Of a stretch of DNA of 64,000 nt, positions 40,681-64,000 are shown piece after piece; the stretch's first letter is position 1; every line of letters starts with the position of its first letter. The translations under genes and the position numbers were made by a program. Source of the stretch: Psammoneis japonica (taxonomy: Eukaryota). Below the pieces are notes generated by a model, which had not been told where the DNA came from, searched no databases, and saw only the letters and a list, made by a program, of their open reading frames with translations. The stretch is taken from positions 186,001 through 250,000 of the forward strand of contig QPGO01000072.1 of the NCBI GenBank assembly GCA_008632985.1. Reading direction: 5' to 3'.

Positions 40681-41489
40681 GTGCTTTTCAGCAGGTGTTG
40701 AAGGCAGAGACCATCCCTTGTCAAAACTCCAGATGGCAGACAGCATCATGCACACCCAATTCTGGGTGCAGCTCCCCCAACTGTGACAAGGAAAAAGCTG
40801 TGGCACATGTGGATGAATGTCTGGTGGGAGCCAGTGACATGAGGGGAAAGCACTGAAAAGATGACCACACGCATGGTGATGAATCAGATTTGTTCGAGTC
40901 TGATGGGGACAATTGTTCCAACACAGGAGGTGAGTGTCAAGGCATTCTTGCAAAGTTGGCATGGTGGGCAACCGCAACAAAAAAGCAGGGCACAGACTCC
41001 ACTGAACACAATGCTTCCCAGTTACAAACACATGATGTCTGGGAAGGAGCGCTTTTGACACTCATGAAGTGCTTCTGCAGATGAGACTAAGTCGTCTTCC
41101 TTCCAAGAAATGCCACCACACATTTTAAATTTTCTGCTTGAAAGTCTCAGGTCACACAGAACAAGACCACGTGGCCACACAAATCATGGATGATCCCAGC
41201 CCCTTGAGGACAACTGACACCATTGTGCGCGAAACAGAATCAGGTTCTCATCAATGCTGACATTGATTTCCCTTGAATGACAGCTGTCTTTCTGCATCCA
41301 TCGCATTGAAGCAATCCTTCTTATGACCCCATTTCCAGTCTTGTTTCTGACAGTCTCTGCTGCAGTGCTTGATGCACTTGCACTGCGCACATTGTTTGGC
41401 AGGTTTTTTGCAGCAAAAGAAGCAGCGAGAATCTACAAAATTTTTAGTTTTTTCAATGTTTCCATCCAGGAATTTTCCAGAGTTTCATT

Positions 41490-42130
41490 GCCAGAACAAG
41501 GCTTCTGGAGTGGGACAGTGTCCAGCAAAGCAGACACTCCCAAACTCTGCTTCTGCCATTTCTAGCATCACACTAGAAAGGAGGTCTTGTGCATCATGTT
41601 CACCATTCACAGCAGCCTCTTTCAACCAATGCACAGCATGATGGAGTGACTTTTTCAATCTGCTGCCCCCCCTTGCAAAAGCAGAGCCCCAGCGAATGCT
41701 GGCCATTCCTGTGGTGTTGAGCGGCAGAGAGTGCCACCGAAAATGCAGCTTCGGGATTGCTTTCACATTCGTCACACATCAATTGGCTCAGACAAAACTG
41801 AGATGTTGCACAGCCCATCTCTGCTGCTTGTAGAAGGTGCTTCTTGGCTGTTCCCTTGCATTTCTCCATGCCTTCCCCTGCCAAGTGGCAACATCCCAAA
41901 GTCCTTTGCAACCTCACATGACCATGCTCCACAGCATGATGGCACCACTCGAATCCTTTTTCATCATCTACAACTGTGCCACTCTCATCTTTGTTCACAC
42001 ATGTCTCAGCCAAAGCCACCTCAACCCAAACTTTTCCACTCTTTGCATGGTTGAGATGCTGCTCAATTCTCTTCTCCATGGAATCGGCAAATGGTGTCCT
42101 GCAATGGGGGCATTTTGAAAAGTCAACCTC
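41490..42130 (-). pseudogene. Sel1-like repeat protein relic (preceded by a CPxCR RING-like end)
   Basis: CPHCRTPF...KGFEWCHHAVEHGH..LQRTLGCCHLAGEGMEK..TAKKHLLQAAEMG..SQFCLS...GQHSLGLCF..HAVHWLKEAA matches the Sel1 consensus with Tyr replaced by Cys/His. Frameshifted. Confidence 0.75.
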
Positions 42131-43059
42131 AGCACCACCCACACGTGTCTGCAATGACAATGACAAAAAAAACTGGAAATCTGTTTTACCGCTGCCTTGC
42201 CACCACCCACACCAACACCGACCACAGCAGACCCACGTTTCCCAGTGCCCACAAAGGGCAGCAGGGACAATTTGGGCACCACTGAACGTTGTCAGAAAGA
42301 CAATGCCATTGACACATTGTCCAAAGGCAATGCCATTGGTGCATCATCAGAAAGAGGCTGTTTGTTTTAAGTCAGAATGGCAACTGACCAGATGCTTGTT
42401 ACACAGCAACCACAGTTGCTGTGCCTCAAAGAATGGACAAGCCCAGCCACACCACTTGGGAGACACCAAAACAAACACTGCAGAAAACCAAACACACGTC
42501 CATCTCCAAAGATGATGTGCTTGAAGAGATGTGAGAGAAATTCCTGGGATGAAAAACACCCCTGGGATGAAAAAACACCCAAGAAAGTCCAACATGGACC
42601 CCAACGAAGGAAAAGGAAATGATGGTCAGAGTCGTTGGATGAAACTTCCGTCATGCACAGAATTGTGCAGAAATTGTGTGCTGAAGCTGCAACATCAAAG
42701 AGCAAGAGGAGCAACACCAAGACTTGGAAATTCGGACCACTTGGAAGACCCATGACGACCCACTTTGGAACACCGTAGAATGTCCATCATCAATTGCAGT
42801 GTGTTGGAAAGAAAACTCAAAGGAAGTGAACTGGTGAGAAGAACAAGAGGACAAACCTGACACAGTCGTTGACTCGAAATTCTGGCCAAACGCACAGAAA
42901 TGTGCGTGAAATTTGCACTGAAATGACTGACTTGGGAAATTGCTGAATCGCACAGAATTTAATGTAGAAAACATGCTGACATCAGGAAAGAAAATGTGCA
43001 AAGAGATGCAACACACCATGGTGGCACCACTCCCCCGAATGTAGAAACAACAGAGTGTC

Positions 43060-43300
43060 CCCTCTGATGCCTTTTGGTTTTTCTGTCATTGGCACAACTG
43101 CCCAATGTCCCAAAGTGCCTGAGGAGGTTGGCATGCCACCACACTCTCACATGGGACTCTCACATGGGACAATCCCACTGGCGATTGTGCAGAATTGTGT
43201 GACAACAATGACAGCATTGGCTGGAAGTTCTTCCTGAATGGGCATTTGTCTGAGCATCCTCAGCACATGTGGGCTCCACAGCATGACATTCGAACATTCA
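43060..43300 (+). mobile_element. Possible non-LTR retrotransposon C-terminal relic
   Basis: Only the short motif DSIGWKFFLNGHLS, reminiscent of the IGW..F..G.LS motif after the zinc knuckle of diatom non-LTR elements. Confidence 0.3.
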
Positions 43301-43751
43301 TTTCTTTGTCGCATTGCACTTCCAGGTCTGAGAACACCTCCAAACATGTGATGCATGCCCCTTCTGTGTCGTTTTGCAGTCTCTTGACTTTGCCACTGCT
43401 TTTTGCTCTGCTTCCTGTTGTGTCTTCTTCACCCTGTCAATTTCTTCAATTTCAACCAGCAGTTCATGACATTTTGCCACTGTGATTTGCTGAAGTTTCA
43501 GCCTGTCTTTGGGAAGAATGCTCTTTGAATTGAGTTTTTTGGTGAGCTGCGCAAGGTCAGCTGCCAAGAGCTTGCAACATTTGTCCCTCTACATTGTAAA
43601 AGGCAATGCTCTGAGGCTCAATTTCTCAGGCGCAGGCTCTTGTTGTGTGGATGAGGATCAGCACCGATTTGTGAGCTGATCAAAGAATTTCCTTTGCACA
43701 GCTTCACAGAACAAGGTCAACTCCAACCAGCCGAGATCTTGTCATGATCAA

Positions 43752-44139
43752 GGGGGGTTGTCCCCATGTTTGTCCTGGAATTGTCATGGCATTTGAACAA
43801 GGACATTTGTGGTTTTATTTTTGAATGCAAAAATCACTTGCATTCACCCCCGATCGCACATGAAACTGAGAACATCAGGCACCACGATCGAAGCATGATG
43901 ATGATGGCAATGTCGACACAGCTCAAAAACGCAGTGGTCCATTCTCAAACATTTGATGCACATGTGACCTTTGATGCACAACAAACATGAAACAAATCAG
44001 AGTTGACAGACACACCACCTCTGTCACAGATTCATGGCTTGATGTTTTCGCCAAGGTGAAGCACCACGAAAATCAGGAAAAATCATGTGAGTCACAAGCC
44101 ACTCGGTTGCATTTGAGCCAAAAAAGCAGCAAATGACCC
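43752..44139. mobile_element. MITE copy 2 (family of 1162-1542)
   Basis: TCAA|GGGGGGTTGT...AATGACCC|TTGA; internal sequence colinear with copies 1 and 3. Confidence 0.75.
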
Positions 44140-45707: not shown

Positions 45708-46943
45708 ATGGCAGAAGCGCCGACCACCGTTCGTCGCAGCGATGCTGTTCTTCACGACACGAATCTTATTATCTACGGCGATCGCAACTCTATCACCGGC
45801 TTCAATATTGCGGTTCATGGGAACGACAATGTCATAAGCCTTCCTGCTAATTACAACGATGTTGGTGCAATTGTGCAACGTGTTCAAAACGGCTTTCTTG
45901 GAAACGGCTTGTTTGAAACAGGACTGACGGTTATAGGCAACGGCAACGACATCACTTATAACTACGCCAAGGTCACTGGCAATGGAAATGTTATCCATGG
46001 CAGGGATGCAACGGTTGAAGGGGACAGAAATAGCTTGAACGGTCCGTACTCAAAAGTGAAAGGAGATTCCAACTTTGTCGAAGGAAACGACGGAGTTGTG
46101 ACCGGAGACGACAACGAAATCAAGGGACGATGGTGTAAAGTGACCGGAAACCGCAACACCATTTTCGATGGCGATAATTCTAAAGTGGAAGGTCATTCTA
46201 ATACGGTGAACGGACGATATGCATATGTCCGAGGCAATCGAAATACAGTCGTTGGACATCATTGTAATGCTCAAGGAAATCACAATACATTGAGCGGACG
46301 ATATGCCAGCGCCCGCGGGGATCAAAACAAGGTCGACGGATACCATTCCAGCGCTAACGGTAACAACAATGCAGTTGCAGGAGAAGAAGCCGATGCCTAT
46401 GGCATTGGAAACACCATCAATGGCGTACCTGCCGATCAGGCGCTACAGGAACGCAGGCAGCAGCGTCAACACCGCATGGATCAACTCCAACAATTCCTGC
46501 AGCAGCGACCTGGGTCAGTGAATGAACAGCTAGAATACGCGCAGCTCCAAAGTGCCCAGCAGGCACAAGACACCATGCAGCAGGCCCGACACATACAGCA
46601 ACAGTTTGAGCAGCAATTCCAGAATATCTTTCAACCACTCCAATTTATGCAATTCCCAACCGCCCAGCAACCCCAGATTGTTGCTCCTCCCGCAGCTGCG
46701 ACTGTCCATCATCAGCCCACAATTCAGTTGAAGCTTCGTGGTGAGGATGAGACGGTGGCCGACAAGGACGATAATGTCTGCTACGTTTGCCATGACAACA
46801 AGGCTGTCGTGGTGTCCACTTGCTGCTACAAACTTATCAGTTGTATGGAATGCGCACGCATTCTCTATGAGAACAAGCCGGTTGGAGACGTTTCCTGCAT
46901 GAACTGCAGAGCGGTGGTTCGAGAGGTGGCGCGCATCTTTTAG
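45708..46943 (+). CDS. Protein with xxNxVxG heptad beta-roll repeats, Gln-rich linker and C-terminal RING-like finger
   Basis: 411-aa intronless ORF with normal Tyr. About 20 repeats such as GNRNTVV/GHSNTVN/GDSNFVE. C-terminus CYVC...STCC...SCMEC...SCMNCR. Confidence 0.8.
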   Translation: MAEAPTTVRRSDAVLHDTNLIIYGDRNSITGFNIAVHGNDNVISLPANYNDVGAIVQRVQNGFLGNGLFETGLTVIGNGNDITYNYAKVTGNGNVIHGRDATVEGDRNSLNGPYSKVKGDSNFVEGNDGVVTGDDNEIKGRWCKVTGNRNTIFDGDNSKVEGHSNTVNGRYAYVRGNRNTVVGHHCNAQGNHNTLSGRYASARGDQNKVDGYHSSANGNNNAVAGEEADAYGIGNTINGVPADQALQERRQQRQHRMDQLQQFLQQRPGSVNEQLEYAQLQSAQQAQDTMQQARHIQQQFEQQFQNIFQPLQFMQFPTAQQPQIVAPPAAATVHHQPTIQLKLRGEDETVADKDDNVCYVCHDNKAVVVSTCCYKLISCMECARILYENKPVGDVSCMNCRAVVREVARIF

Positions 46944-47234
46944 ACGTAGACATTTCGACTTTCTTATCGGCTGGCAACGTGCAACTGAGAGAACAGGAGT
47001 GATTGGTTTGCAAAGTACGCATGTGTTGAACGCTAGCGTACGTACGTCCAACGCTCGCCTTCTAAACTTAGTAAACAATGTGGTAACAAATGACCGTGCA
47101 CTTTGTCATCTGCTTTGAGGCATTTTCAGTGTAGGTTCGGTGATTTCCACTTGATGACTGCCCAACAGTCTCTTGCGTCGATAGTGCTGGCAATGAGTGA
47201 AGGATGTTTCATCCTGTGAGAGTTGTCCGGTTAG

Positions 47235-50200
47235 AAGGTCCGTTCGGAACCGTAAGGTCCTTTTTTTAAAATAGAAGATTAAGGAAGCCTATGTAGAGCG
47301 GAAGGCAACAGCAGAGGGAGGCACGGAGGTAGCTGTAGAGACGGTAGAGTAAAAAGGTCGATGGACGCAAGACGAAGGGCGTTTTGTGGAAGGTATGGGT
47401 GAGGAGGGGGGCAGGGAGAGAGGAGGTGAATCGGAGGATGTGCGTAGAAAGGTGAAGAACAACGTTGTAGCCAAGAGTTTGGGTGGCCCACTGGGATGGG
47501 GTGGCTGTACGGTAGGTGTTTCCAAAGCGATCGGCGGACAGGCGACGCCATGCGGAGTCAGCAGAGGGAAGGATTGCAGACGGAGATGACAAAGCGTAGA
47601 GGAAGGCGGAGTGGGGAGGCATCGGAGTGACGAAGGTCAGAGGAAGAGGACCAGGGTGGCTTGGGCTGAGAGCAAACGGAGGGGGATGTAGAACCAAAGA
47701 GCAAGCGGTGGGCAAAGTAGCCGAGACCACCAAGGTGATCTACAGTGAAGGGGAGCAGAAAGATGCCATTGTCGCCAAGCGAAGAAACAACAAGGGATCC
47801 ATCGGTAGAGGAAGTAGAGGGGCCAAGAAACTTCAATCTCGCGCTCGAGTGGTGTGCCTCAGTTAAGATAGGAGAAGAGGGGGCAGGCAGACCTGGAGGA
47901 GGGCGAGAGGAAGCTTGAGGGACGGTGACGTCCACTGCAATGTAGTGATGGCGGGAGGGAGCGGAAAGGGAGGCGGGAGGGGGGATTGAAATGCCGACAT
48001 CGGCGGGACGGAGAAGCGGGCGGGTGGGGAGTAGGTTGGTGGGTTCAAGATGAACGTCATTGGGGGATCGACAGAACTCTGCAAGAGGACCCAAAGTTTG
48101 GGCTAGGATGAAAACAGTGTCACGGAGACCATTGGAAAGCTTGGACTTGTGAGCACGGCGGCAAGAAAAGGCATGATCACCGTAGGCATCCAGAATGGCA
48201 TGGCCACAGGGACAGGGAGTGTTGACAAGGGACGGAGGAAGGATGGGGAGACGAAGCTTACGAAGGGCGGCAACAGCGTGGGCGTCCGAAGAAAGGCAGG
48301 AGCTTGGAAAGCGACGAGAGAAGGAATGAAGAGGGAGGCTTGTAAGCGGAGACAGCAATGAAGGGAGTGAAGATTGCACGTCGTAAGATGAGTTAGCAAG
48401 GATGGAGGTCACTGCTTGTTGCTGATGTTCATGGTAGAGACGACGGGCCAGACCGGGGAGAGTGGCCGATTTAACCAGGGCAGCCAAGGAAGAAGAGGAA
48501 AGGGTAGAGGCGGAAGCCAGAACGGGAGCACAACGGCGGAAGAGCGTATAGAGTCGTAGGGAAGAGCGAGGGTTGGACCAGGAAGACAGGGAGAGCCGAA
48601 AGCAGCGCGGAAGGGAAACAGAAGCGCCAGATGGCAGGCTGACACCGTGCGAAGCAAAGCGGAACGAGCGGAGAAGCGACACCAAGAAGGAAGGAATGGC
48701 GGCAGTTGTTGGGTCCCGGAGACCAAACCCGCCTAAGGAGGCAGGAAGGAAGGCGATGGCAATGGAGTGGTCGGGAAAAGGAGCGGCGAAGGAAGTGACG
48801 TAGTGTAGAAAGCGGTGAGTGACGGCAAGGAGGAAATCTTGAAACGGAGAGGTCCAGAGAAAGGGGTCGGGAGGATTGTCGGGGTCGAAGTTGCAGCAGA
48901 AGTCAGCTCCAAGGAGGTGAGCAGAGGATGGAACAAAACAGTGCTTGAAGAGTTGAGCCTGGGTTTGTTTGTCATGGAGACGGGTGAGAAGCATGTCAAC
49001 TTTGTCGGAGAGAGCAGAGGAAGTGTCGGAAAGGAAAGAGGTGGCGAAGTCGTGGGAGCCGAGGGGCTGTCCAAGGAAGCGAACACCAGAGGTGAGTTCG
49101 GGGTTGTAAGAGGGGTCATTGGCAGGGTTTAAGAAGGAAAGTGCAGCACGGAGAGAATCGGCGCGGGAAGGGGGAAGAGCAGGGATGGGGCTAACACCGG
49201 CAATGGAGGTGAGGATCTTGGTTTTACGGAGGTTGAGGGAGATTCCGCAAGGGGCACCGAGGGCGGAGAAGCGTTCAAGGAACCATGGAAGTACGGAATG
49301 GGGAAGGAAAGTGTGAGCATCGTCAATGTAGGAGCCAACTGAGACAGAGGAACGGCCAGGAATACGTTCTTGAAGCTCTTGGTTAATCGGACGAAGAACC
49401 AGAGAGAGGACCAGGCTGGCGAAGACAGGGCCGAGAGGGCATCCTTGGGCAAATCCCTCTTCTTGAAGAAAGGAGCCCCAGGAAGAGTCGGGTCGGCGAC
49501 ACCAACATGCATTGGAACTTTGATGTAGAAGGTCAAAAAAAGGAAGCAGAGGATGGAAGGCAGGGGTGGAGGTGAGAACGTGTCGACAGGCATCTCGAGA
49601 TGCTTCGTTGAACATGTTGACGAGGTCAAGAAGAAGAAGAGCCTTGGTAGAGTCGGCAGAAGAAAGATGCCGTTCAATGTTGGCAAGAGCAGAGTGAATG
49701 AGATAATCGAGGCCACCTTTGACACCAATGCCAAATTGACCATCTGGGAGGAGGCACTCGGCAAATGCAGAACCAAAGAGAGTCATGACGACGGAGCCGG
49801 CAATGCGACGAAGAGCAGCACCGACGCCAATGGGGCGAAGCTTGTTGAGGTCGCTGGCATCTTTATGCAGAGCGACAAAGTAGTTCGAAGCAAATGAGGA
49901 ATGGACGGAGGAAGGAATGGAGCCATGGAGTAGAAGAAGGACAAGCTCACGAAAGGATGACAAGCAGGGGCGTTGAGCAACACCTGTTGGGGTTTTGGTA
50001 GAATTAGAGGGCGCAGGACTTGAAAAGGTCGGTAGAATCAGCAAAGACACCGGCAGCAGTCCCAGGCTTACATTTGGAGAGAGCGGAAAGAAGAGCATCG
50101 GAGGAGAGCTCAATGGGCTCATTATGAAGGGAGGAGGCCGAGCGAGTTGAAGGAGGATTAGGTAGATCGGAGGGGTGCAGGCGAGGAGGGTAGAGCTTGA

Positions 50201-51210
50201 GGATGGCAGGAAGGCGCTCAGGAGCAACGGCAGCAACAGGAAGCGCAGAGGTGAGCTTGGAGCAGGCCGAGTGAAAGTCATCTTCGTCGGCGCAAACTTG
50301 AGCGGAGCAGCAACAGGTGGAAGCAGAAAAGTCGGGGGAAGATGAGGAGAGGCGTGGCGCATGGGAGCAGGCTTCGTGGTAGAGTTGGCGAATACAGCCA
50401 CGGCGGAAGAGGGACAAGCGGGAGGCAATGGCAGGGCCAAACTTGGAGCGTGGCGGGACAGGAGCAAGAATGAGAGCTTCAAAGAGTAAGAGCAGCTTCC
50501 AGAAGGGAGCAGAGTCACGTTGCCACGTAGGAATGAGGTGGGAGGGGTCAGAGAGAGGCTGGGAGGCGGCTAGTACCCAGCTTGTCACATGATGAAGAGC
50601 AGAGTAGAGTTCCTTACGGGCGGAGGACGAGAGCTTGCGGCGGCAGGAAGCTCGGAAAGGCGGAGGCTCGAGTGCAAGAGCATGGAGCCATTGTAGCGAG
50701 GGGCCCCAGTCACCTAGATTATGGAAGGACGAGAGAACAATGTCAGTGTTAAGGGAAGAGCGAGGAGCGAAGTGCTTGTTCTGCAAGTGATTGCGAAGGT
50801 GGGTGGTAGACAGGCAGGTGCATTGGCCATGATTGCAATGCCTGCAGACGTGCAAACCAGCGGTGTCGAAGAAGGACGTGGGTGCATGAGAAAGCGAGAG
50901 GCGGGGATGCTCCTGGCGAAGATGGCTGCGTATAGAAGTAGGAAGGGATGATGCATCAATGGAAGGAGGGGACCAGGAGCAGAAGGGGCAAGTTGGCGAG
51001 GCACGGGCTTCGGTGGGTTCCACGAGGCGATGAGATCGCGGAGGGAGTCGATGTCAGGGGCTGCAGCCCGGATGGCTTCTTCGTAGAAGGGTTGCCAGGT
51101 AGAAAGGCGGGCCGGGCAGTAAGTACCTACGAAGGCATCAAGGACATCCAAGAGTTCCATCTCGCGCTGGGACTGTTGGGGAGAAACCGATCTGAGTTCC
51201 ATGCCGCAAC
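47235..51210 (-). mobile_element. CRE-clade-like non-LTR retrotransposon (C2H2 fingers, RT, restriction-like endonuclease)
   Basis: N-terminal CPFC..H....H and CRHC..H....H. RT motifs KLRPIGVG, GQFGIG, LDLVNMFN, GFAQGCPLGP and YIDD. C-terminal CPCG..D.YGDHAFSC and RPADV...AVDVT...LPF. Short A-tail on the minus strand (T7 at 47261-47267). Frameshifts near 50005 and 47600. Ends are approximate. Confidence 0.85.
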
Positions 51211-51375
51211 AGTTCGTGACAAATTTTAGTCGATGTAGTCATACATATCATTTGTTCACATACGATCCTGAATACGTTTCAATGTTTCAATATTCACACT
51301 TACAGTACAACGTCTGACGTCGCCCTATTGCGTGCGGATCTTTGAACCGGCGAAAGTGGTCAGCAAGAAGCGTTT
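51211..51375 (+). repeat. Diverged direct repeat, copy B (partner at 39585-39730), abutting the 5' end of the CRE-like element
   Basis: Shared blocks as listed for copy A. Confidence 0.8.
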
Positions 51376-51485
51376 GGGTGGTTGTCGGTTGTGAGTGTTA
51401 CAGTAGAAGTATTTTGTGCGAAGTCCATAGCAAAGTGTCGTACCCCCTTTGTTCCATTTGTGAGTGAGCTTTTGCATGGTATACG

Positions 51486-53026
51486 ATGGGGCAGTTATGC
51501 AGCAAGTCAGCTCCGTCCAGCGTCGAGAGGAATATGGGAGATAGTCCGAGGAAGGAACCTACAGCATCAGCTCCGCCACCTCCAGCAGCGCCAGCAGCTG
51601 ATACTACAAAAGACGAGCGCACGAAGGAATTAGAGTCGTTTCGGGAAAAGTTCCGAGGATCCGTGTACTTTGATGCCCTTGATCATTTTGAAGAAGATGA
51701 AGAAGCCTACAAAGTTGAACCCTTGCGCTATGCTCCTGCCGCAGCTGCCAACCCGCACCCACGTGCCTCGATTGCTGTGGACGTGGACGCCACCATGCTC
51801 AAGGATAAGCGGGAGGACATGAATCAACGTTCCGCCTCTGTCGTTGTTATGGAGAATCTGAAGTCGCCTTCTATCAAACTCAGCATGGAAGGATATCCCG
51901 GAGATTTGACTCCGACGGAACTTGAAGCTTGTAGGCTGTTTCGCCAGCGACTCAAGCAAAAGGATCCTGCTTACTATGACATGGTGTTGGCGTTGGCACC
52001 CGGTGAGGAAGAGCCTTACTCGATCTGCCGCTTTATGCGAGCGAGGAACTTTGATGTTGATGCTGTGATTGAGATGATGGACGAGTCCATTGGCATGTGG
52101 AAGGATGCAGCAAAGCATAAGTTTTACCCCACAATCGAAGATGCAGTTGGGTGCAGCGAGGCCGTCTTCAATTCGCAGTATCCCTCTGTTTGGTCTGGTC
52201 TTGCAGAGAATGGACAGTCGTTATCTTCCTTCCAGCAAGCGCCATGTCCATTGAAGGAATACAGTGTTTGGCTGAGGTTGACCAGTTGAGTAATTATTTC
52301 TGGTACACCTCAAAACACAGGTTTGCAAAGCGCTTGATCGAGCTACAGGAAGATAACCCTCAAGTTGTTGTACGTGCAGAACAATTTTATGTCGTCGACT
52401 TGAAGAATACAACTTCATCACAGTTCTCAAAGACTGCTATTGAAGCCGTGAAGAACATGTTCATGCCATCCTCGTGTTTCCCCGAGATTCTTAATAAGGC
52501 GGTGGTTCTAAATGCTCCAAGCTTCTTCTCCTTCATCTGGCGCATCGCGAAAGTATTCCTGGATCCACGTACGCAGCAGAAGGTTGAGATCTTCTCCAGT
52601 GCCAGCAAGGGTAATGAACGGTTGAAAGAGCTCATGAAATCTGAGTACATTCCATCTGACTACGGTGGTACGGCGCCCTCCATTGATGAGATCTTTCGTG
52701 AGCAATACTGTGGTGCAGGACGTCGACAAGTTCATAATCTAATGACTCTTGAAAAAAAGAGAAAAACGGACTGGAAGTTCACCTTGAACGCAAAAGAACG
52801 CGCGACCGTGACAGTGTACAGTTCTTCTCCCGGTCCAGCTGACTTTGTTGTTTCATCTGGCGGCAAGAGTATTGCGCAGTCAAGTGTGAAAAGCAATGGC
52901 AAAAAGGGCGCGTACTCGACAGAGATTGCTTCCAAGTTGGAGGGCTCCGGCAATTTTCAAGTCTCGGCTCATTCGCAGTCGTATAGCACCGAATACTTTT
53001 TGGTCATTGTCAGTATCATAATGTAG
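51486..53026 (+). CDS. Sec14/CRAL-TRIO lipid-binding protein (one apparent 1-nt frameshift near 52213)
   Basis: MGQLCS N-terminus (possible acylation site), GYPGDLT, ICRFMRARNFDV, VVDLKN, CFPEIL...LNAPSFF...FLDPRTQQKV, IPSDYGG. The two ORFs join as ENG/TVVIF if one base is added. Confidence 0.82.
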
Positions 53027-53519
53027 CAGAACAAATTTTAAGTCCAATGTCAGAATTATGTACCATACTCCGATTATCAACAATTTCGCCCTGTTTCAAT
53101 CAAATTAGTTGTCTAATCGTGGAATGAATTGTAAAAGAATAATGGGAGACACGATTGCCAAAGTCTATCAGCTAGAAACGAATGTTCAGATGAAGAACGG
53201 CTATTGAGGCTTGCAAGGGGCTCGAGTCACTTAGTTCAGTTAGACTTGCTTCTCTCTTGATCATTCTGTTCGCAAGTTCGAATCACGGAACTACGACCTG
53301 GTCAATCCTAAGACAAGATGAAAAAACCGCAGAACTCGGAAAAAGTCCCCTCTAGTTCTAGCAAGCCGGTCACTTCCCTACCTCTACTAGAGGATATGAA
53401 GGTTAAGTCTAACAAAATCAGTTTAACACATACACAAATTACCAAAATTTGCAAAACCATAGAATTCCCATAGCAACTGAGTAGAGCGAGCCACGCGTAA
53501 TTTCCCTTGGTGACTCATC

Positions 53520-54166
53520 TCAAGGCTCTTCCTTCTCAAACTCCTCCAACGACTTTCGCAGGGACTCTGACGGCAAAGAATGCCTGCGTTTGTCTTCATT
53601 TGCGTCTTCATCTTCTATTGAAAAGCCGGCGGACAGCAACTCTTCAGAATTTTGCGGGTCACTGATCGATACCCGACGCTGTGGAGACAAGGAGGACAAC
53701 TTCTGTCGCCGCGCCTTCTCCTGCTCATCCAAGAGAACCCCCATTTCATCCCTTTCAATCTCCATCACTGGACCCATCTGATCTTCTGGATCGCTTTTTG
53801 TAGTAGATGCCGTGTCTTGTCGATTTTGAAGGGCCTTTTCTTTGACCGTGACGGTACTTTTCCCTAGTTCTGTCGTACTTTCTGCTTCCAATGGCACGCT
53901 TGGAAGCGACACAGTCATACGACGGGAAGCTCTAGTCATGTCTGGAAGGTTTGCCGTCCCCTGACATATCGCATATCGCGCAACTCTGTACCACCTCCAA
54001 TGAGGGTAGCATTTCTTCACGGATGCATATCGTGGATGCAAATGGAGGAAGAAATTGAAAAAGCCTTGAAAAGGTTGCAATGTGTTACCCAACAGCACAA
54101 TCCAATACTTTGGGGGTACGTTCTCCACAAGCCGTTTTGCATTTGCAATGGTGATCCAGGCATAAG
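53520..54166 (-). pseudogene. 3' part of a 7TM GPCR-like (cAMP-receptor/Git3-like) gene interrupted by Copia
   Basis: YAWITI...LQPFQGFFNFFLHLHPRY followed by a hydrophilic tail. It joins in frame to 61414-62299 when the element and one TSD are removed (IFFNT|YAWIT). Confidence 0.8.
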
Positions 54167-54400
54167 AGTCACGACTCAACGTCATTCTGGTCGCATCTCA
54201 CGACTACAACCCAGACTCAGATTTTCTCTTCGAAATAATTAGCTCATCACAAAATCGATTCAAACAGAAGCAACGACATTCGTCATAATTTCTAGACAAC
54301 GACTTTCAAAAAGCGTCTGTTTACCTCTGTCGCTATTCATATTGCTACCAACCTCCGAGGTCTTATCCATCCTACTCAGCTGCAGGACTGTATCTCGACT
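54167..54400 (+). repeat. 5' LTR (AGTC...GACT termini)
   Basis: Ungapped match to 61175-61408 with 12 substitutions. Confidence 0.95.
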
Positions 54401-54413
54401 GGTCACAGAGACC
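54400..54413 (+). other. Putative primer-binding site
   Basis: TGGTCACAGAGACC directly at the 5' LTR end; resembles the tRNA-iMet type TGGTATCAGAGC. Confidence 0.5.
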
Positions 54414-54562
54414 AATTTGCGCGTTGACGAGAGCTCCTGACCGAGTCATCGTCACGGACGCTTTCGGTTTTTGATTTTGAAGCAAACCCGGGAAATAGCT
54501 GAGTCTCTCTCGCTTCTCTCGTCTTCACCCTAACAAGAACCTCCCACACTACACTCTCTGTC

Positions 54563-57500
54563 ATGGCTGCCATCGATCCAGATGTTCTGGCGAAGGCGTT
54601 TGCCGATGCAATGGCCGCCAACGCCGCGGCGACCGCTCCTCCGGCTCCAACCAAGCCGTTACGTGGTGGAATTCACCCAACCCACGGGGTTTACATTGGT
54701 GGTTCCAAACTCAACAACAACTGCGAACAATCCAACGACAGAACCTGCCGACTCGCCTCTCAGCGCCGTCATCCCAAGGCTCTCGACTCGATAGAACGAT
54801 CTCTCCGCGATCAACAAGCTTCCGCAATGACTTCCAAGTTCAACGGTCGACTTGAGATTTCGGACGGTTCCATCAACGAGCTTGACAAGGACCATTTCGT
54901 CAAGACTGTTCGAGATCTAGTAGAAGCCCACGGTCAGCAGACGTTCTACCATGTCAAGGACAGCGACGACAAGGTTCAACATGTCTTCGACCATCTTCAC
55001 GAGTTTACTGTGACCGATCTCGTGAATGAGTACACGGTTAGGAAAGCAGCTACCGATGATGCCAAGTACGACGAGATCGAGCTCGACGATGTCGGGCTCT
55101 CTCAACTTCTCGTTCACTCAAGAATCACTGACACCTTTCGCGAGAAAATCGAGACCAAGTTCAACCATCTTTCGGACTGCCAAGACTACCCTGGATCTGT
55201 TCCATTCATGATGGCTCTCGACACTTGCAACACTAGCGCTCTAACGAACATTGAGACGGCTGAGAAGCAGCTGGAAGACCTTAGTTTGGTTGACTATCCC
55301 GGCGAGGATTGCACGGACTTTGCCACCGAAGCTCTTCGCATCGTGAAAATTGTGCAGACCGACTGCGCGCTTCCGGCGAACACAAGCTCCAAGCTACTCC
55401 ACAAGATCTCCTCTACGTCCTCTGAACACTTCAATCGCCGAGTCTACAACAAGCTCGACGACGTCAAGGCTGTGGAACGCAAGTGCCGCCTCAAGAATCC
55501 TGCTGACATCGTGTCCGACAGTGATTGCAGAACGCTCGGACCGGTCGGCATCATTGCGTGGATTCAAGAGCAACACAATGAACTCGTGAAGGACGGGGAA
55601 TGGCCTGCATTAGTCGCCAAGCTACCCGAGAGTAATCTTTCAACTACGGACAACCCTGGGAAGACGAAGCACTGTCATGGTTGCGGTCTCGAGGGGTGCG
55701 CCAAGAAGACGTGTCCGAAGTGCAACGCCAAACCGCCGCGCGACGATCCTCCTCCCAATCCGCCGCCTGCAGACGACCCCTCCAAGAAGAAGAGGCGACC
55801 CATCGCTGTCTGGCGCACTAAATTTGACGGAGAAACGAAGAAGGATAAGAATGGCAAGGAATGGAAGTGGTGTGCCACGTGCAAGGCGAAGGGTGCCGAC
55901 AAACCTGGAATCTACCAGAAGCACTCTACCGCGGAACATACCGACGACCGCAGGCAACCTCCCAAGGAGACCCCAGCCGGGAATTTGTCTTCCGTTGCTG
56001 ATCCGGACAGTGGCGTGCCCATGGGTCCGCCCGCTCAGACTACCAAGGAACCAGAGGGAGACGAATCCGACCCCAACGAGTTGGTTTTCACGGGAATGTG
56101 GTGCGCGGCTACGGATCCCGTTGCCGACCCGGATTTCTGTTCCGCCCCTGTTGCTGCTGCAACCATTGTTACTCCGGCTTCTTCGGCCGAGAGGGAGAGC
56201 GATGCAGTCGTCAGTGCTGAGGTGGTTTGCATCGAAACGAGCCCACCTGCACTCACCTCAGTCGTGGATCCAGTCGTGTCTCCCATCGTGGTTGAGACTG
56301 TCACTCCCGAAGACGCCGATGACTTCTACGAACACTCCGACGCTTTCTCTACCTTTGAAAACGAACCACCGGCTATTGAGTTGTTTCCGGCCTCGAAGCT
56401 GTACTCCATCAAGCATCCAGATGAGTTCTTTGACGCTCCCGCACATTTGACGGACATGCTGTCAGACGACACCAAGTTAGATCTCATCCTTGAACACGAC
56501 GTACACTTTGAAGACGCACACTACGACTTGCCTCCGTGTGTTACGTATCGTGGCTTCGATTTCTACGATCCAGAGGTCCTGGACACGGATGATTGTCACG
56601 AGGACGTCGAAGACGAGCCCACTTCGCGTCGCTCACTCTTGGGTCGAGTCAAGCTGTTCACATTCTGGCTCGCCGCCATGTTTTGGGAAACGGTGCTGCA
56701 TCTTTGCTTTGCTCCGATCCCATGCATTCCTCGAGCTCTACGCCGCCAGCGCAAACTCCCAACTTTGCACGGGTTTCCAGCCTCCTGGATGGTCCTGTCC
56801 GTTGCAGTGATGGTGTGGTCAGCAGTTTACGCCGGTCAACAGCCCGAGCATCCCTTCTCGCACGTGCCAAGTCGTTTTTCGACCGCTGGCTCTCAAGTCT
56901 ACCACATTGTGGAAGAGCTAGATGACCGGATAGTGTTGGATGCGGGGTCACTGTTCGAATGTCACAGGATCAAAGGCACGCAAGTACTCACCGAGTTTGT
57001 CGCGCGCCATCCATCACACGCACTGAGCACTCGTCTCAAGGCCTGCTGGGAGAGCCCAGAAGTGGCTGAACGGTCTGATGCGATGGACGAATCAGCCTTC
57101 TTTGACACCTGTGAGGAACTGGAACCTCTCGACGACCAGAAGCATTTCTTTGACGCTCTTGAGGACTTCAGCCCAGATTTCTTCCGGTTTGACAAGCTCT
57201 GTCTGCCGCATCACATCGTGGACACTGCCCATTTTCAAGATCCTGTGGAACTGTTGGAGGAAGCAAGTGTTAGACCAGTCGTCTGTGACACCTCCACCAT
57301 CCAACTGCTCACCGGACAATCACAAGCCGACCTCCTTGCATCCGATCCGCAGGCTCTCATCGGTCTGTCGGACGAGGCTCTCACGGTCGTCATGGACACT
57401 GGTGCCACGTTAGCTGTTGCCCCCGACAAAGATGATTTTACGGGGCCTGTGACTGTTCCCAAGAAACCCTTGCAGATCAATGGGATTGCCAACGGTCTTG

Positions 57501-60500
57501 CCATCCAGGGTGCCGGTCCGGTTGCGTGGGTGTTCACAACGCCGAGTGGGGCTACCATCCAACTGAACACCATGGCATGCTACGTCCCTGGAGCCCGTCA
57601 GCGCCTGCCATCGCCTCAACGCCTCTTCAACGAAGAGAAGGGGACACGTGGGAAGTGTGAGGGCGATGAAACCACTTTCCGTTTACATGTTGACGGGGTG
57701 GGCAAGTTGGTCGTGCCATGTCATCCATCAAGCCACTTGCCTGTTGCGTCGATGACCAAGGGCGCATCTGCCGCTCCTCAAGTGAACCTTCAGGTCCTCA
57801 ACGAGGAGAATCAAAACCTCACGGCAGGCCAAAAGCTTCTTCTCGAAATGCACGCCCGTTTTGGCCATTTGAACTTTGGTCGCGTCCAAGCACTTCTCCG
57901 CGCAGTTCCGTTCCTTTCGAACCGTTTCAAGTCCGCAGCGAAGTGTGACCACCCAAGATGCGAGGCATGCGAATGTGCTAAAGGTCACAGACGCTCTCTT
58001 GGATCTACTCACAAGTCGACAGTCCCTGAACGCGACGGGGCCCTTCGAGCTGACCATCTTCGACCGGGTCAGGCTGTCAGCGTTGATCATTTTGAGTCGC
58101 GCCTTTTAGGCCGCACCTTCGACTCTTATGGCAAAGCCACGTCCAAGCAATTCAAGGGCGGTTGCATCTTTGTCGACCACGCCTCTGGCTATGTCCAGGT
58201 CGAGCACCAACTGGGTTTCTCCGCTGTTGAGACGATGCGCGCGAAGCAAGCGTTTGAGAAACATGCTTTGGACCACGGGGTCATCGTCCAAGAATTTCTT
58301 GCCGACAGTGGCGCTTTCAAGGCCAACGCTTTTGCACAACATGTGCGAGAACATGAACAACATCTCCGTTTTTGTGGAGCCAACGCCCATCATCAGAACG
58401 GCGTCGCAGAGCGGGGCATCCACAGCATCTCCAACATGGCGAGAGCGATGTTGCTTCATGCATCAATCCACTGGAAGGGGGGAATTGACAGCTCCCTGTG
58501 GCCCATGGCAGTTTCTTGTGCCACGTGTGTCTACAATGTCACCCCAAATTCCAAAGGACATTGCCCAGTGGACATTTTCACCGGTTCGACAGTGCCAAGA
58601 CATCGGTTGCGCGACATTCACACATGGGGATGTCCAGCGTACGTACTTGACCCGACCCTCGCTTCCGGGAAGAAGCTCCCGCATTGGGAGCCTCGCACTC
58701 GTCGCGCTTTGTTCGTGGGACTCAGCACCATCCATTCCAGTGAGGTTCCTTTGGTCCTCAATCTTCAAACTGGAAGTGTTGCACCTCAGTGTCATGTGGT
58801 CTTTGACGATCTCTTCACCACCGTGCCATCAATCGAGAGGGAGACGGATCCACCTGATCACTGGGAACACTTGTGCCTCAACCAATTGACATGCATCCCT
58901 CTGGAGAAGGATCAGGCAGTTCATTTACACGATGAGTGGCTCACCCCTCCAGAGCGTCAACGTAAAGAACGAGAACTAGCCAGAGCAACACGCATTCGCG
59001 GGCATTTTGAGCCCACTCCATCGATTGCTGTGCCGGATTCACCCACTTCTCGCGACGACGTCACCGATCGAGTCGCACCTGCGACTCAGCAGCCAACGCC
59101 ACCAGTCCCACCTGCGACTCAAACTCCTACAGACTCTGCGGACTCTGCGCCAATTCAGCCACCTGAACCTCAAGACAGTGACGGACTTCCGCCACCCGAA
59201 GCGCCGACGGAACCAACAGCTCCTCCCCCAGTCGAGACACCTCCTGTGATGAATCCAGAGGGAGCGCCAGGGCTGCGACGGTCTTCACGGTCAACCAAGG
59301 GACAGTTCAACTCTGCCAAGTTTGTAGATGAGGTCTACTTCAGCTCCGTTGAGAAAATGCCGCCACCGATCGGACACGAGGCTCAACTGGCGCATCTGGC
59401 GACTCTCGAGACAGATTTGGACAGTGGCACCATCAATGTCGGCGATCCACGAGCCTGCGCAGCTAGCAAGAAAACCAAGGACCCTGATGTGCCTTCGTTG
59501 CACAATGCTCTGAAAGGTCCGGACTCCGACGAATGGATTGAGGCGATGAAAATTGAAGTCAACGCACTCGTGCATCATCGAGCCTGGAAAGCAGTCGAGC
59601 GTCAGCCGCACATGAATGCACTTCCAGGCACATGGGCACCAAAGCTCAAGAGACTCCCAGATGGAACCCCTCTCAAGTATAAGGCCCGATGCTGCGTCCG
59701 CGGTGATTTGCAGAAAGAAGGAGTCGACCACTTCGAAACCTGCGCGCCGGTTGTGCAATGGTCCAGTGTCCGACTCATGCTCACTGCGGCATTAAAGGAG
59801 GGATGGACCACACGACAGGTGGACTGTGCCACAGCCTTTTGCCAAGCTGATGTCGCCGAGGAAGTTCACATAACACCGCCGAAGGGATTTGCGCCAAGGT
59901 CGGGACTCAATGTGGTTCTCAAACTTTTGAAAGGACTGCACGGCCTAAAACAGTCTCCCAAGGGCTTCTACGAGAAGTTACGAGCTGGTTTAACCGAGCG
60001 CGGATGGGCACCTTCAGCCATGGATCCCTGTTTGTATTTCAAAGAGGGCATGATGTGTGTGGTGCACGTCGACGACACCGTTTTTGCTGGAGCTTCAGCT
60101 GAAGCTCTAGAAGCCGAAATTCGCAAGTTAGGAGTCTCCGATGACGAACATCGCCACGCATTTGAACTTAGAGACGAAGGAGAAGTCGGTGACTTTCTCA
60201 GCATCAAGATCGAAAAGCTCTCCGAGGGTCGATTTCTACTCACTCAACCCGGTCTAATTGACAAGGTCCTGCGCACCGCACAGATGCAGGATTGCAATGG
60301 AGCATCTGCTCCAGCTCTACCTGCGGCTGTTGGTGCCGACACGGACGGCCTGCCTTTTGATGAACCCTGCGATTATCGCTCAGTTGTTGGAATGTTGATG
60401 TGCTTGGCAGCGAACAGCCGGCCAGACATTGCACATGCCACACATCAAGTGGCTCGATTCTCGTTTGCGCCCTGAGCGTCCCATGCTGCTGCAGTGAAGC

Positions 60501-61153
60501 GGACACTCCGACACCTCAAAGCAACTGCTGCTGAAGGTCTCATTCTCAAACCTGCGCAAGATCATCGAGTTGATTGTTACGTCGATTCTGACTTCGCGGG
60601 GTCATTTGGTGTGGAAGATGGTCAAGACCCAGTTTCTGTCAAGTCCAGGACTGGATGCCTTGTCCACTGCGCCGGCTGCCCGCTTGTCTGGGTGTCCAAG
60701 CTGCAGACTCTTGTGGCATTGTCGACTGTGGAAGCGGAACATGTCACACTTTCTCAAGCTGTGCGCGATCTCATCCCCATTCGTGAAGTTCTCAAGGAGC
60801 TCAACCACCACGTGTTCGGAAAGTCTGACCGCCAAAACCCAATCACGACTCACTCCAAGGCTTTTGAGCTTGCAACCCAAGGCACCGATGACTCGCCTGT
60901 AGAGCAGAATGTCCTGCCTGCGTCCGTTGTGTACGAAGATAACTCCGCGTGCCTCAAGTTCGCACGTGTGCCCAAGTTGTCTCCGCGAACCAAACACATC
61001 GGCATCCCACACCACTGGTTTAGGACTAAAGTCGAACAATTGGAGATCGACATCCAACCCATCAGCACTCTAGAGCAACTGGCCGATCAGTTCACGAAGG
61101 GACTACGGACCGATGCGTTCCGCACGGCTAGAAAGGCTCTCATGGGCTGGCAA
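54563..61153 (+). pseudogene. Copia gag-pol polyprotein, inactivated
   Basis: Protease VMDTGA; integrase HARFGH..CEAC, VSVDH, LADSG, NGVAER; RT; RNase H YVDSDFAG, EAEH, YEDN, LADQFTK. One in-frame TGA at 60473-60475, RT motif HVDD at 60065, and the probable original stop now CAA at 61151-61153. Confidence 0.93.
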
Positions 61154-61165
61154 GCTCTCTCGGTT

Positions 61166-61174
61166 GAGAGGGAG
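61166..61174 (+). other. Polypurine tract
   Basis: GAGAGGGAG immediately before the 3' LTR. Confidence 0.8.
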
Positions 61175-61408
61175 AGTCATGACTCAACGTCATTCTGGTC
61201 GCATCTCACGACTGCAACCCAGACTCAGATTTTCTCTTCGAAATGATTGGCTCATCACAAAATCGATTCAAACAGAAGCAACGACATTCGTCATAATTTC
61301 TAGACAACGACTTTCAAAAAGCGTCTGTTTGCCTCTGTCGCTGTTCACATTGCTGCCAACCTCCGAGGTCTCATCCATCCTACTCAGCTGTAGGACTGCA
61401 TCTTGACT
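61175..61408 (+). repeat. 3' LTR
   Basis: Ungapped match to 54167-54400; carries 11 of the 12 apparently derived substitutions. Confidence 0.95.
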
Positions 61409-61413
61409 GCAAG

Positions 61414-62299
61414 TGTTGAAGAAAATCAGTGCGCAGAGGATGGATCGTACGGCAACTCGGCGACCGCACGTGTTTCCAGACATTAGATTTGACCCTTGGA
61501 AGCTGCTTTCGCGTCTCATGGCCCTAATGTTGCTGTTGATGCTGCCACCCCGTCTTTGTGCCTCCTGTCGATGATCACATTCTCGGCGAAGCACTGTGTG
61601 GCAAATGACGGCAAGAGACACAAACTGTGCGGCAAGCGCCAGCAAGGTGGGCACCAGGTTGAAAGCCCATTTGTAGATTTCGTGATCTTCTCCTCGTTGA
61701 CAGTCAACTCTTGGATTTGAAATGCACCCCAGCGGGAAAGAATTGATGGAGCATCTTCCCACCGGTGCGGGGTTGTAAATGTCGAGTCCAAGTCCGGCAA
61801 AAGCCGTTCCCAGCGTAAAGAGCATTGCCGTCACATGAAAGACGGGCTCCATCCTGCGAGAAATAAATTCATCACGCAATCCACCATGCAGGGTCACCGC
61901 GAAGAAGATCATGAGGAAAGCATTGTAGATCGGTTGCGCGTGCCCAAGCTGAAGAAAGAACCCCTGCATGGCACACGTCTGGGTGTTGCCATGTGTTCCT
62001 TCAAACGGCAACCTCGATGGCATGAGCCAAGTCCCCAGAAAAAACATGAGGGAAAAGGGAATGTCCGAAACGCCAATGGCAAACATGAGACGATTCTGAG
62101 TCTTCCTGAGTTTGAATTGTGAAGACTTGAGAATCATGTGCACAATGAGGCAGGATCCAACGAGAGACAGAGCACCAGTGACTCGAGGCATGTTGTGCAG
62201 GGCTCGTCGCTGTGCTTGTGTGAATCTGGGTCCACGAGGTCCGAGAAACTGCGGCGGCCCTCCTGCACCTCTCGGCGGCCCTCCTGTTGTTGCATTCAT
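61414..62299 (-). pseudogene. 5' part of the interrupted 7TM GPCR-like gene, TpA-mutated
   Basis: PRVTGALSLVGSCLIV..NRLMFAIGVSD..GNTQTCAMQGFFLQLG..YNAFL..MEPVFH..CSINSFPLGC..CQRG. Several expected Tyr appear as His/Cys (IVHMI, GTHGN, EDHEI, ICHTV, ILCAL). Confidence 0.8.
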
Positions 62300-63021
62300 G
62301 GTTTGTTCTTCACTTTCAAACCCAGTTGTGTTTTGATGCAGTTTGTCTCTTCATCAGCTGGCAACTTGAAACTGTGTCAACCCTTTGTCCTTTAGATTTT
62401 ATGTTGGGTTAGGGAAACTACAGCTAGACTGGTGTCAGTGTCGGGGGTTGGGGACGTTGGATTTTTGTCCGCGAAGAGAGGAGGAGTTTTACCGCTACAG
62501 TGTATTAGCATGTCTGAAACTACCGTAGAGTAGCGGCTATTATGAAGAGGAAAGTGGGTAAATTATAATTTTTATCTTGAGTAGATGTTATTTATCATCT
62601 ATTTTTTAAAGAATGTCTATTGTACATTTCCCCTACGTACATATTAGTACTGTAATATGATGTATACAAACTTTTTCATTGCACTTTATGTACACTTATG
62701 TTGTAATGTACTGTGATCTATCGTTATTTATGGTAAAAGAGTCTTTATAGATTTGTCTTTTCAATGCGAAATTGTTATACTGTAGAAAGCTACGTGAGAC
62801 AAAGCGACGACATCGAGAGGTAGGTTCACGCAAGAAAACTGTAGAGTTTCCCAGTGCTGCTAGTAGCTACGTAGAGGCCATGATGATGATCAGAATTGTT
62901 CGCGTTAGTCTTGCTTTTGTAATGCTCTCTACTAGTAGTGATATGGATGGATCAAGAATTTGAATTTCGAAGAAATGTACTCTATCATAATGCTGATTCT
63001 ATTCAAAACTGGCGCTAGACG

Positions 63022-64000
63022 TTAAACATCGCTATCATCATCAGATGCGTGGGATGTCACGGCAATGTCTTTTTCACCGGATAAAGTAGTGCCGGAGCGA
63101 GGCTCACGGATGCAGTCTTTTGTACCAATGATAGACAACACGACTGGGAGGAGCATAAGGCCGTGGCTAATACCAAGCAGTACCAGAGCCATGAAGGTCA
63201 GGAAAATCGTACTGAAGATCTCGCTCGTGCTGAATGCAAGTGGAATCACACCAAGAAATGTCGACATGCCCCCAATTAGGATCGAGCTGCCCATTGTCTG
63301 AAGCATATCCTTTGTCTTTTCGAAACGTTCCCCAGGCGCTTCGTAGTACCGAAGCAGTGCGTGCATAATGAAATCAACAAGGAGCCCAATTGCCATGACG
63401 AGGGATATGTAGCTCACTGCGTTGATGTGTACTCCCCAGAATTGAAGCAAGCCTGCGAAATGGAGAAACACGTAGATTGCATTAGTTGGAAAGAGATGGA
63501 CGATACGACGAATCTTGTGTATGTTTCTTCGCTGATGTACTTACCAAGAAGATCAACGTATAGTATGGCTATCATTGGAGCAACAAACAACACTGCTGAC
63601 CAATGCGGAATAAAGAAAAAGCCAAGGGCGCTGACTGCCACCACACCAAGAATAGTGGTAAGAATAAGCTCGTCGGCCGCAACAGAATAAAATTCCCAAA
63701 TATAATACGTCGACTGGAACGTGAAGAAGGGCCAGTCCTTCTTGTCCTTGTTGATGGGTTGAGCTCGAGTTACTTTGCGTTGGTTTTCAAGAGCATTTAT
63801 CTGGTCTTGAACATCTTCTTGATCAACGTTGTCCATGGTGAAATGACAAGATGAAGCGATAATCGATCCATCGTCACCGCGCCAGATATGATCTTCGTAT
63901 AAATCTCTGTAAACCGGGTCTTGCAAAAAGAGGTCGACCTGTTCATTGAATGTCAAGCTGCCGGTAGCATTCTCGGATCCAACAAAGTTGTAAAAGTCAC
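63022..64000 (-). CDS. Patched/NPC1-like sterol-sensing RND-family membrane protein, 3' end (continues beyond the window)
   Basis: YYIWEFY, multi-TM region, LVMAIGLLVDFIMH, MGSSILIGGMSTFLGVIPLAFSTSEIF, HGLMLLPVVLS. GT-AG intron at 63453-63544. Confidence 0.88.

Follow-up and report, generated by a model that had tools for sequence, protein, structure and literature searches.

How can a retrotransposon polyprotein lose most of its conserved tyrosines and still be encoded in one long reading frame? This question is raised by a single element of the diatom Psammoneis japonica, located in the stretch of 64,000 nucleotides analyzed here (assembly GCA_008632985.1, contig QPGO01000072.1, positions 186,001 to 250,000; hereafter the window, with position 1 at its first letter). 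The element is a Ty1/Copia-type long terminal repeat (LTR) retrotransposon at 54167-61408 on the plus strand, and is the sole one described in the 64-kb window. An earlier note on this DNA had proposed that its polyprotein was killed by systematic recoding of Tyr codons to Cys and His codons and by loss of its stop codon. Our analysis makes it highly probable that a young Copia insertion in one allele of a host gene was followed by a bounded process on the DNA itself, in which TpA was changed to TpG or CpA on both strands.

Tyrosine loss and TpA changes in the polyprotein

The polyprotein frame is located at 54563..61150 on the plus strand (2196 codons with one in-frame TGA) and follows the order gag, protease, integrase, reverse transcriptase (RT) and RNase H. 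All 13 motif strings quoted in the earlier note were found in the frame-1 translation of 54563-61243. The frame was compared with a close set of 78 relatives in query-anchored phmmer alignments, and columns were counted as conserved at 60% or more. Tyr, claimed as the family consensus at 13 of the motif positions, was the commonest residue at 13/13 among these relatives, and at each of them the element carries a TGY or CAY codon. The Tyr counts ranged from 45/78 to 78/78 (72/72 and 75/75 where coverage was lower), and nearly all of the remaining residues were Phe. At YVDD, LYGLKQ, VDY and LRYLK, Tyr was present in 78/78 close relatives. Relatives with a native HVDD or LHGLKQ, which the note had set against its own reading, were accordingly not seen, since both columns were occupied by Tyr in 78/78. 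The Tyr of the RT YVDD box, which is replaced by the His codon CAC (60065..60067, plus strand) in the element, was also found in 115/134 distant relatives. The string RLPSPQ has the codon CCA in the element, and the relatives display Leu (48/78) or Ile (30/78) at this position.

Among the 893 conserved columns, the element matched the consensus at 710. The 42 conserved Tyr columns were occupied in the element by 10 Y, 15 C, 10 H, 4 F and 3 other residues. Tyr was retained at only 10/42 columns vs 700/851 for the other residues (Fisher p = 2e-15), and each of the non-Tyr residue classes was retained at 53-94%. Cys or His occurred at 25 of the 42 Tyr columns in the element, while the 78 relatives showed a median of 1 and a maximum of 5. 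A distant set of 150 representatives gave the same picture, with Cys or His at 9/15 Tyr columns in the element and a median of 0 in 82 homologues. The Tyr content was 2.5-3.9% in all 78 close relatives vs 0.93% in the pol part of the element.

The Pfam scores scarcely reflect this damage. The RVT_2 match at residues 1674-1919 (1.3e-35, 123.6 bits) was the lowest of nine, and the reduction was modest (1.6-32 bits) compared with the 125-155 bits of eight relatives. A score test on the rve domain, also suggested in the note, was moot because no rve match existed among the 120 relatives listed or the 10 scanned. The recoding may be the cause of the element's death.

Tyr-poor Copia homologues are also present in public collections. 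Three members of the distant set are predicted as whole proteins in ENA assemblies (P0052 and P0043) or in an NCBI genome (P0094), with Cys or His at 12/15 (P0052), 11/15 (P0094) and 4/15 (P0043) Tyr columns. P0052 contains 1 Tyr in 2061 residues. They probably represent the same process acting in other genomes or samples. A scan seeded with P0052 for the DNA of a Tyr-poor relative yielded one relative of 51% identity, whose Tyr content was normal and whose TA observed/expected ratio was 0.41.

The 183 differing conserved columns were classed by the single-base change that links the consensus residue to the element codon. The A:T>G:C transitions consisted of 29 TA>TG, 14 TA>CA and 11 others. 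The remainder consisted of 10 CpG>TpG/CpA, 6 other G:C>A:T, 58 transversions, 51 multi-step differences and 4 ambiguous cases; the transversions and multi-step differences are to be expected with relatives that share only about half of their residues. The enrichment of changes in TA-containing codons postulated in the note was observed, as 43 of the 70 unambiguous single-step transitions were TA to TG or CA. In total 54/70 were A:T to G:C, and 43 of these 54 were located at TpA. The inferred A to G changes were preceded by T in 29/37 cases, and the inferred T to C changes were followed by A in 14/17. As a control, A>G changes at the first codon position (I>V, M>V, T>A, N>D, K>E) were analyzed. 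The preceding codon ended in T in 16/23 changed positions vs 8/107 unchanged ones (odds ratio 28, p = 9e-10). The bases at -2 and +1 were different for events and for surviving TpA sites; since Tyr codons make up most of the sample, no motif was drawn from it. The TA observed/expected ratio was 0.28 in the element interior vs 0.41 in the 51% relative mentioned above, an apparently intact one from a metagenome (L001).

The stop codons were in accordance with this pattern. In 68/78 close and 91/111 distant relatives, the last residue is the one that aligns with the W of MGW. Directly after MGW, at the family stop site, the element carries CAA (61151..61153, plus strand), which is one TA>CA step from TAA and fits the former TAA suggested previously. 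The frame now continues through a read-through extension of 30 codons (61154..61246, plus strand) and ends at TGA 61244-61246 inside the 3' LTR, a triplet that reads TAA in the 5' LTR. The sole internal stop, TGA at 60473..60475 (plus strand), had been ascribed to CGA. This origin was supported: a CGA>TGA change, of CpG to TpG type, is indicated because 7/7 family contigs read C at this base and Arg is the commonest residue of the column (R 41, K 36, Q 1 of 78).

A change of TA to TG or CA is unable to turn a sense codon into a stop within an open frame. The proposed tendency to erase stops was correct for TAA and TAG, whose observed/expected ratios were 0.23 and 0.35 vs 0.44-0.53 in host genes. 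However, TGA rises (1.4), and over six frames the density of stops is only slightly reduced, from 62-71 to 55 per kb. The further suggestion that long dead open frames are left behind was not borne out in the old mutated blocks of the window (described below), which contain no open stretch longer than 247 codons.

The LTR pair, the empty-site allele and the extent of the tract

The 5' LTR (54167..54400, plus strand) and the 3' LTR (61175..61408, plus strand) both have 234 bp, with the termini AGTCA...TGACT. The 3' LTR is the mutated one. The pair displayed 12 differences, nine of which were TA in the 5' LTR vs TG or CA in the 3' LTR. The other three were two CG (5') vs TG (3') and one CA (5') vs TA (3'), and no further kinds were present. 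TpA loss amounted to 9/12 in the 3' LTR and to at most 1/13 in the 5' LTR (p = 0.001), where 12 TpA are retained and site 54383 is the only possible change. CpG loss in the 3' LTR was lower (2/13). The two LTRs of a retrotransposon are identical at integration, and since they now differ, the process acted after integration. The extent of loss was concordant with that in the coding region, where 25 of the 35 conserved Tyr columns reading Tyr, Cys or His had changed.

The target-site duplication displayed the same asymmetry. Its left copy (54162..54166) is the unmutated 5-bp ATAAG, while the right copy (61409..61413) reads GCAAG and carries two TpA-type changes. The first of the two affected TpA joined the terminal T of the LTR to the initial A of the duplication, and was absent before the insertion. 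Paired direct LTRs together with a short target-site duplication identify the element as an LTR retrotransposon, and the integrase-before-RT order with an RVT_2-type RT places it in the Ty1/Copia type.

Contigs from three runs (X1-X3) of one sample were compared with positions 52000-64000. One contig each in X1 and X2 joins 54163 directly to 61411, skipping 7247 bases (7242 + 5), and this empty-site allele carries ATAAG once. The X2 contig showed 0 differences in 621 left-flank bases (53543-54163) and 37 in 977 right-flank bases. At 61500-61688, X1 contained two contigs of 189 bases, one with a depth of 30.6 and 0 differences and the other with a depth of 26.7 and 16 differences. These paired depths fit two alleles of one diploid clone, and a mixed culture is also possible. 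Of 20 listed among the 37 right-flank differences, 14 were TG or CA on the insertion allele vs TA on the other.

The insertion splits the gene of a host membrane protein on one allele, and the gene is intact on the other. Both parts are read from the minus strand: the N-terminal 296 codons, hypermutated on the insertion allele, are located at 61411..62299, and the unmutated C-terminal 213 codons at 53520..54163. Across the empty site, the gene runs in frame from 62299-61412 through a junction codon TAT to 54161-53520, giving 510 codons. It is collinear with a homologue of 508 residues (P0269), and a second homologue (P0270) was identified; no Pfam match was obtained for the 510-codon gene. The N-terminal part on the insertion allele contains Tyr>His changes such as LGHAQ vs LGYAQ. 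At 4/4 informative codons (H/Y, M/I, A/V and V/I for insertion/empty-site allele) the empty-site allele agreed with P0269 and P0270, and the direction of change was therefore established independently of the transposon.

The tract of TpA to TpG/CpA changes spans approximately 54700..62392 (~7.7 kb). From the internal part of the element it extends through the 3' LTR and the right copy of the target site into ~1 kb of the host gene, and 103 TpA survive between 54700 and 62390. The left flank and the 5' LTR lie outside it. The left edge is located between 54392 and 54722, as five TpA beyond the LTR survive up to 54692 and the first inferred event is at 54722. The right edge is sharp: no TA occurs over 61927-62392 and five occur within 33 bases from 62393, ~90 bp upstream of the host gene's start codon. 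In 400-base bins over 54401-62400 the TA observed/expected ratio was 0.04-0.40, with one bin at 0.54. Outside the tract, it was 0.48-0.65 on the left and 0.56-1.16 on the right. The process acted after integration, on DNA, specifically at TpA and on both strands, and was limited to the insertion-bearing allele.

It is most improbable that the changes were made before integration, by hyperediting of the retrotransposon RNA (ADAR- or ADAT-like A-to-I) or of its cDNA, with subsequent insertion of the edited copy. Animals do hyperedit the RNA of retroelements from A to G, and their deaminases edit cDNA. A plus-strand A to G excess of 11:2 in the 5' two-thirds of the element would also be in keeping with such an origin (p = 0.05); this split, 11:2 vs 20:20 at 59000, is post hoc and was picked after data inspection. 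However, the LTRs derive from one template and yet differ in TpA change (1/13 vs 9/12), and host DNA beyond the element was mutated solely on the insertion allele. One event falls on the junction of the LTR and the target-site duplication. Finally, both strands were changed, in a balanced manner (TG 31 and CA 22 among 53 events with strand-independent detection), and a runs test detected no strand clustering (29 runs vs 26.7 expected, P = 0.78).

The direction from TA to TG or CA, which the note had taken from the protein motifs, was supported in three independent ways, by the protein columns, by the flank of the empty-site allele with its TA, and by the homologues of the host protein. This bears on the opposite polarity, in which C to T changes at CpA/TpG, resembling repeat-induced point mutation (RIP), would have created TA in the 5' LTR and on the empty-site allele, or in which the Tyr-less state would be native. 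The LTR comparison by itself gives no direction and would allow it. Against it, none of the 78 close relatives lacks Tyr at YVDD, LYGLKQ, VDY or LRYLK, their Tyr content of 2.5-3.9% contrasts with the 0.93% of the element, and the host homologues side with the TA-bearing allele at every informative codon. A reversed direction or a native lack of Tyr is hardly conceivable in this light.

Proposed mechanism and comparison with known systems

In the favored scenario, the element would have inserted into the coding sequence of the membrane-protein gene on one of the two alleles. After integration, a local process on the DNA would have converted roughly 60-75% of TpA on both strands. The outcome in the polyprotein would be the conversion of 25/42 conserved Tyr codons to Cys or His, including that of YVDD in the RT, and of the natural stop TAA to CAA. 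A slower CpG to TpG/CpA decay was probably the source of the single internal stop.

In its simplest reading, the chemistry would be that adenine at TpA in DNA is deaminated and the resulting hypoxanthine is read as G, as has been proposed for the alga Bigelowiella natans. Instead, thymine could have been attacked, through a TpA-directed modification such as 5-hydroxymethyluracil formed by a JBP/TET-type dioxygenase, with mispairing or misrepair leading to T to C. As TpA is self-complementary, modification of thymine yields the identical pattern of TA to CA and TA to TG. The sequence can not separate A to G on one strand from T to C on the other, and the balanced numbers of TG and CA events suit either base. 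In dinoflagellate DNA, 5-hydroxymethyluracil is enriched at TpA. There is no direct counterpoint to the attack on thymine; Mettrop et al. favor adenine deamination, solely from the presence of an ADAT2-like gene. We regard thymine as the unlikely target.

The targeting may follow a domain defined by chromatin or transcription and not DNA homology, and this is suspected because the borders of the tract and of the repeats disagree. On the left, the tract begins with the inner end of the 5' LTR, the expected start of the element's transcripts, and on the right it ends near the presumed promoter of the host gene, which reads antisense into the element. With these two borders, the tract would match a convergently transcribed interval. 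Such a targeting is speculative.

Several points weigh against the scenario of post-integration TpA mutation. The sparing of the 5' LTR is unexplained by it. Eleven of the A:T>G:C transitions fall outside TpA. The ancestral states were taken from relatives of 49-68% identity only, and 109/183 differences represent ordinary divergence. Base composition alone is weak evidence, given the ratio of 0.41 in L001. In the right flank, 6/20 listed differences were not of the TpA type and 17/37 were unseen, and the contig comparison displayed 40 of 429 differing places. In addition, X1-X3 are possibly the source reads of the assembly, so that a platform artefact is not independently excluded by them.

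Such an artefact would consist of dense base modification at TpA in silenced DNA, by which G is called in place of A and C in place of T. Nanopore data do contain systematic errors at modified motifs, and no record states the library types of X1-X3 or of the assembly. Nevertheless, exact 31-letter words in run X1 gave a depth of ~30 for the insertion allele beside ~27 for the other allele. The Tyr loss was also found in public proteins of other assemblies (P0052 and P0094, see above), and the old blocks of the window are short of nearly every TA and of CG as well. In B. natans, the corresponding changes were called from Illumina reads. An artefact is very unlikely on these grounds.

The closest known system is that of B. 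natans, for which a preprint describes that integrated DNA of giant viruses and virophages is hypermutated at TpA only (Mettrop et al., bioRxiv 10.64898/2026.01.13.699255, 2026). There, 230 of 231 mutations found in two integrated viral regions of mutation-accumulation lines were A>G or T>C and each of these was located at TpA, an ADAT2-like deaminase was put forward as the enzyme, and TpA-poor coding sequences were enriched in reverse-transcriptase and DDE domains (10.64898/2026.01.13.699255). The P. japonica locus shares every sequence-level feature of this process. The changes are almost only A:T to G:C in B. natans, and here they account for 9/12 in the LTR pair and 54/70 single-step transitions in the coding region, beside a CpG-type minority (2/12 and 10/70, respectively). 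Both TpA to TpG and TpA to CpA occur on both strands, here with 43/54 at TpA. In both cases bounded foreign DNA is affected in an otherwise normal genome; here the tract overruns the element by ~1 kb.

The two systems also differ. The host is a chlorarachniophyte there and a diatom, i.e. a stramenopile, here, and the depth of loss is different. The target here is an LTR retrotransposon together with ~1 kb of a neighbouring host gene on one allele, and the old blocks of the window are short of CpG too. New mutations were measured in B. natans, while those in P. japonica were deduced from the sequence. The word 'diatom' is absent from the B. natans paper (10.64898/2026.01.13.699255). A full-text literature search, including term look-ups in PMC9998398 and 10.1101/2025.10.24.684338, found no report of TpA hypermutation in diatoms. 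The signature has been reported so far only in this one preprint, on an unrelated alga.

The other systems compared were RIP of fungi, the APOBEC3 and ADAR editing of animals and the CoDi elements of diatoms. RIP is a local and dense mutation of repeated mobile DNA, consisting of transitions only, with a dinucleotide preference; it inactivates transposons and leaks into single-copy neighbours. The P. japonica tract is likewise local and dense, with transitions, a dinucleotide preference, an inactivated transposon and affected single-copy DNA adjacent to it. However, RIP changes C:G to T:A at CpA, whereas A:T was changed to G:C at TpA here, with depletion of TpA. RIP creates stops and AT-rich DNA, while the process found here eliminates TAA and TAG and makes the DNA richer in GC. 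Both LTRs are equally repeated and only one of them was changed, and unique host DNA was changed as well, which is a poor fit to targeting by homology only. RIP was rejected because of its opposite direction and because only one of two equal LTRs was changed. Literature related to RIP in Neurospora and other fungi includes PMC2621366 and PMC7882544.

The tract also resembles the clustered transitions by which editing cripples retroelements in a preferred dinucleotide context. APOBEC3, which acts on cDNA, and ADAR, which acts on RNA, operate before integration and on one strand in animals. Here, in contrast, the LTRs are unlike each other, the host flank was changed and both strands were changed. 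Editing of the ADAR/APOBEC type was rejected, since it would leave equal LTRs and unmutated flanks, neither of which was seen.

The element family and the surrounding window

The element is a young member of a family of Ty1/Copia-type LTR retrotransposons. This family is highly repeated, as the summed word depth was ~3000-6700 in the element vs ~55 in the flanks. A full HMMER search detected 91,445 relatives of the polyprotein at E-values up to 0.001. A word-based search gave closer relatives with 49-68% identity and 2100-2300 residues, one of which is an MMETSP transcript. The nearest named relative is a protein from the diatom Fragilaria crotonensis (57% identity). Upstream of RVT_2, the polyprotein displayed matches to gag_pre-integrs (1096-1140) and SH3_retrovirus (1349-1416), both weak and below the Pfam cut-off. 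The same order, gag_pre-integrs/SH3_retrovirus and then RVT_2, was repeated in eight relatives with normal Tyr.

A candidate primer-binding site, TGGTCACAGAGACC, which starts with TGG and adjoins the 5' LTR, was read from the sequence at 54400..54413 (plus strand). The tRNA scan of the 64-kb window found no tRNA gene to compare with it. A purine-rich tract, GAGAGGGAG (61166..61174, plus strand), abuts the 3' LTR upstream and is a candidate polypurine tract.

CoDi elements are Ty1/Copia-like elements of diatoms, which have been described with an LTR identity of 94-100% and a 5-bp target duplication (Maumus et al. 2009, PMC2806351). The P. japonica element agrees with these in its Ty1/Copia type, in the range of its LTR identity, in the 5-bp target duplication and in its relatives in diatoms. 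It differs in its LTR termini, AGTCA...TGACT and not TG...CA; TG/CA is reported as lacking in 3/26 families (PMC2806351). A term look-up in PMC2806351 found 'mutation' once and 'YVDD' never, and the TpA signature is not described there.

Three complex non-genic blocks of the window (2001-12000, 32001-35000 and 40001-44000) displayed TA observed/expected ratios of 0.01-0.13. In these old blocks the CG ratio was 0.08-0.31 (0.77 in one 2-kb bin) and the TG and CA ratios were mostly 1.5-2.1. They look like the saturated end state of the TpA process combined with CpG decay. No Pfam match above the cut-off was obtained for twelve open stretches taken from them. One of the old blocks contains a scrap of a gene family (5756-5867), which was compared with the gene copy at 14779-14890. 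All four TA and five of the six CG of the gene copy are now TG or CA in the scrap, which shows 12 other differences. This pattern suggests that pieces of duplicated host genes were affected and not transposons alone.

Other features of the window include an open frame of 1344 codons (16583-20617), in which a unit of ~630 bp is present six times in tandem, with 68-94% identity among the units. Several paralogous gene pairs are located ~7 and 8.4 kb apart. The region 46001-52000 displays a strong plus-strand GC and AT skew, with GC skew up to 0.385, and an open frame of 986 codons is located on the minus strand at 47558-50518.

Because one sample contains both the insertion allele and the empty allele, the direction, the timing and the reach of the process could be read directly. 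Its action followed integration and took place in cis, on both strands and at TpA alone, and most of its targets were gone before ordinary substitutions had arisen in the LTRs. The signature is herewith extended from a rhizarian alga to a diatom genome and to retrotransposons, and this points to a wider DNA-editing defence with an A:T to G:C outcome. Long open frames and good Pfam scores persist in elements killed by such changes, which annotation pipelines would label as intact. Dating by LTR divergence would overestimate the age of TpA-mutated elements. For base editing, an enzyme able to edit double-stranded genomic DNA at TpA would also be of interest.

Host genes that adjoin insertions are open to recoding on one allele. 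The role of the process may be that of a genome defence. It is possible, if rather doubtful, that diatoms, like Bigelowiella, possess a cis-acting defence that edits genomic DNA at TpA and is aimed at a domain of chromatin or transcription and not at repeat homology. If this is true, the defence would be an ancient trait common to stramenopiles and rhizarians, and host alleles beside insertions would be recoded or killed as a side effect.

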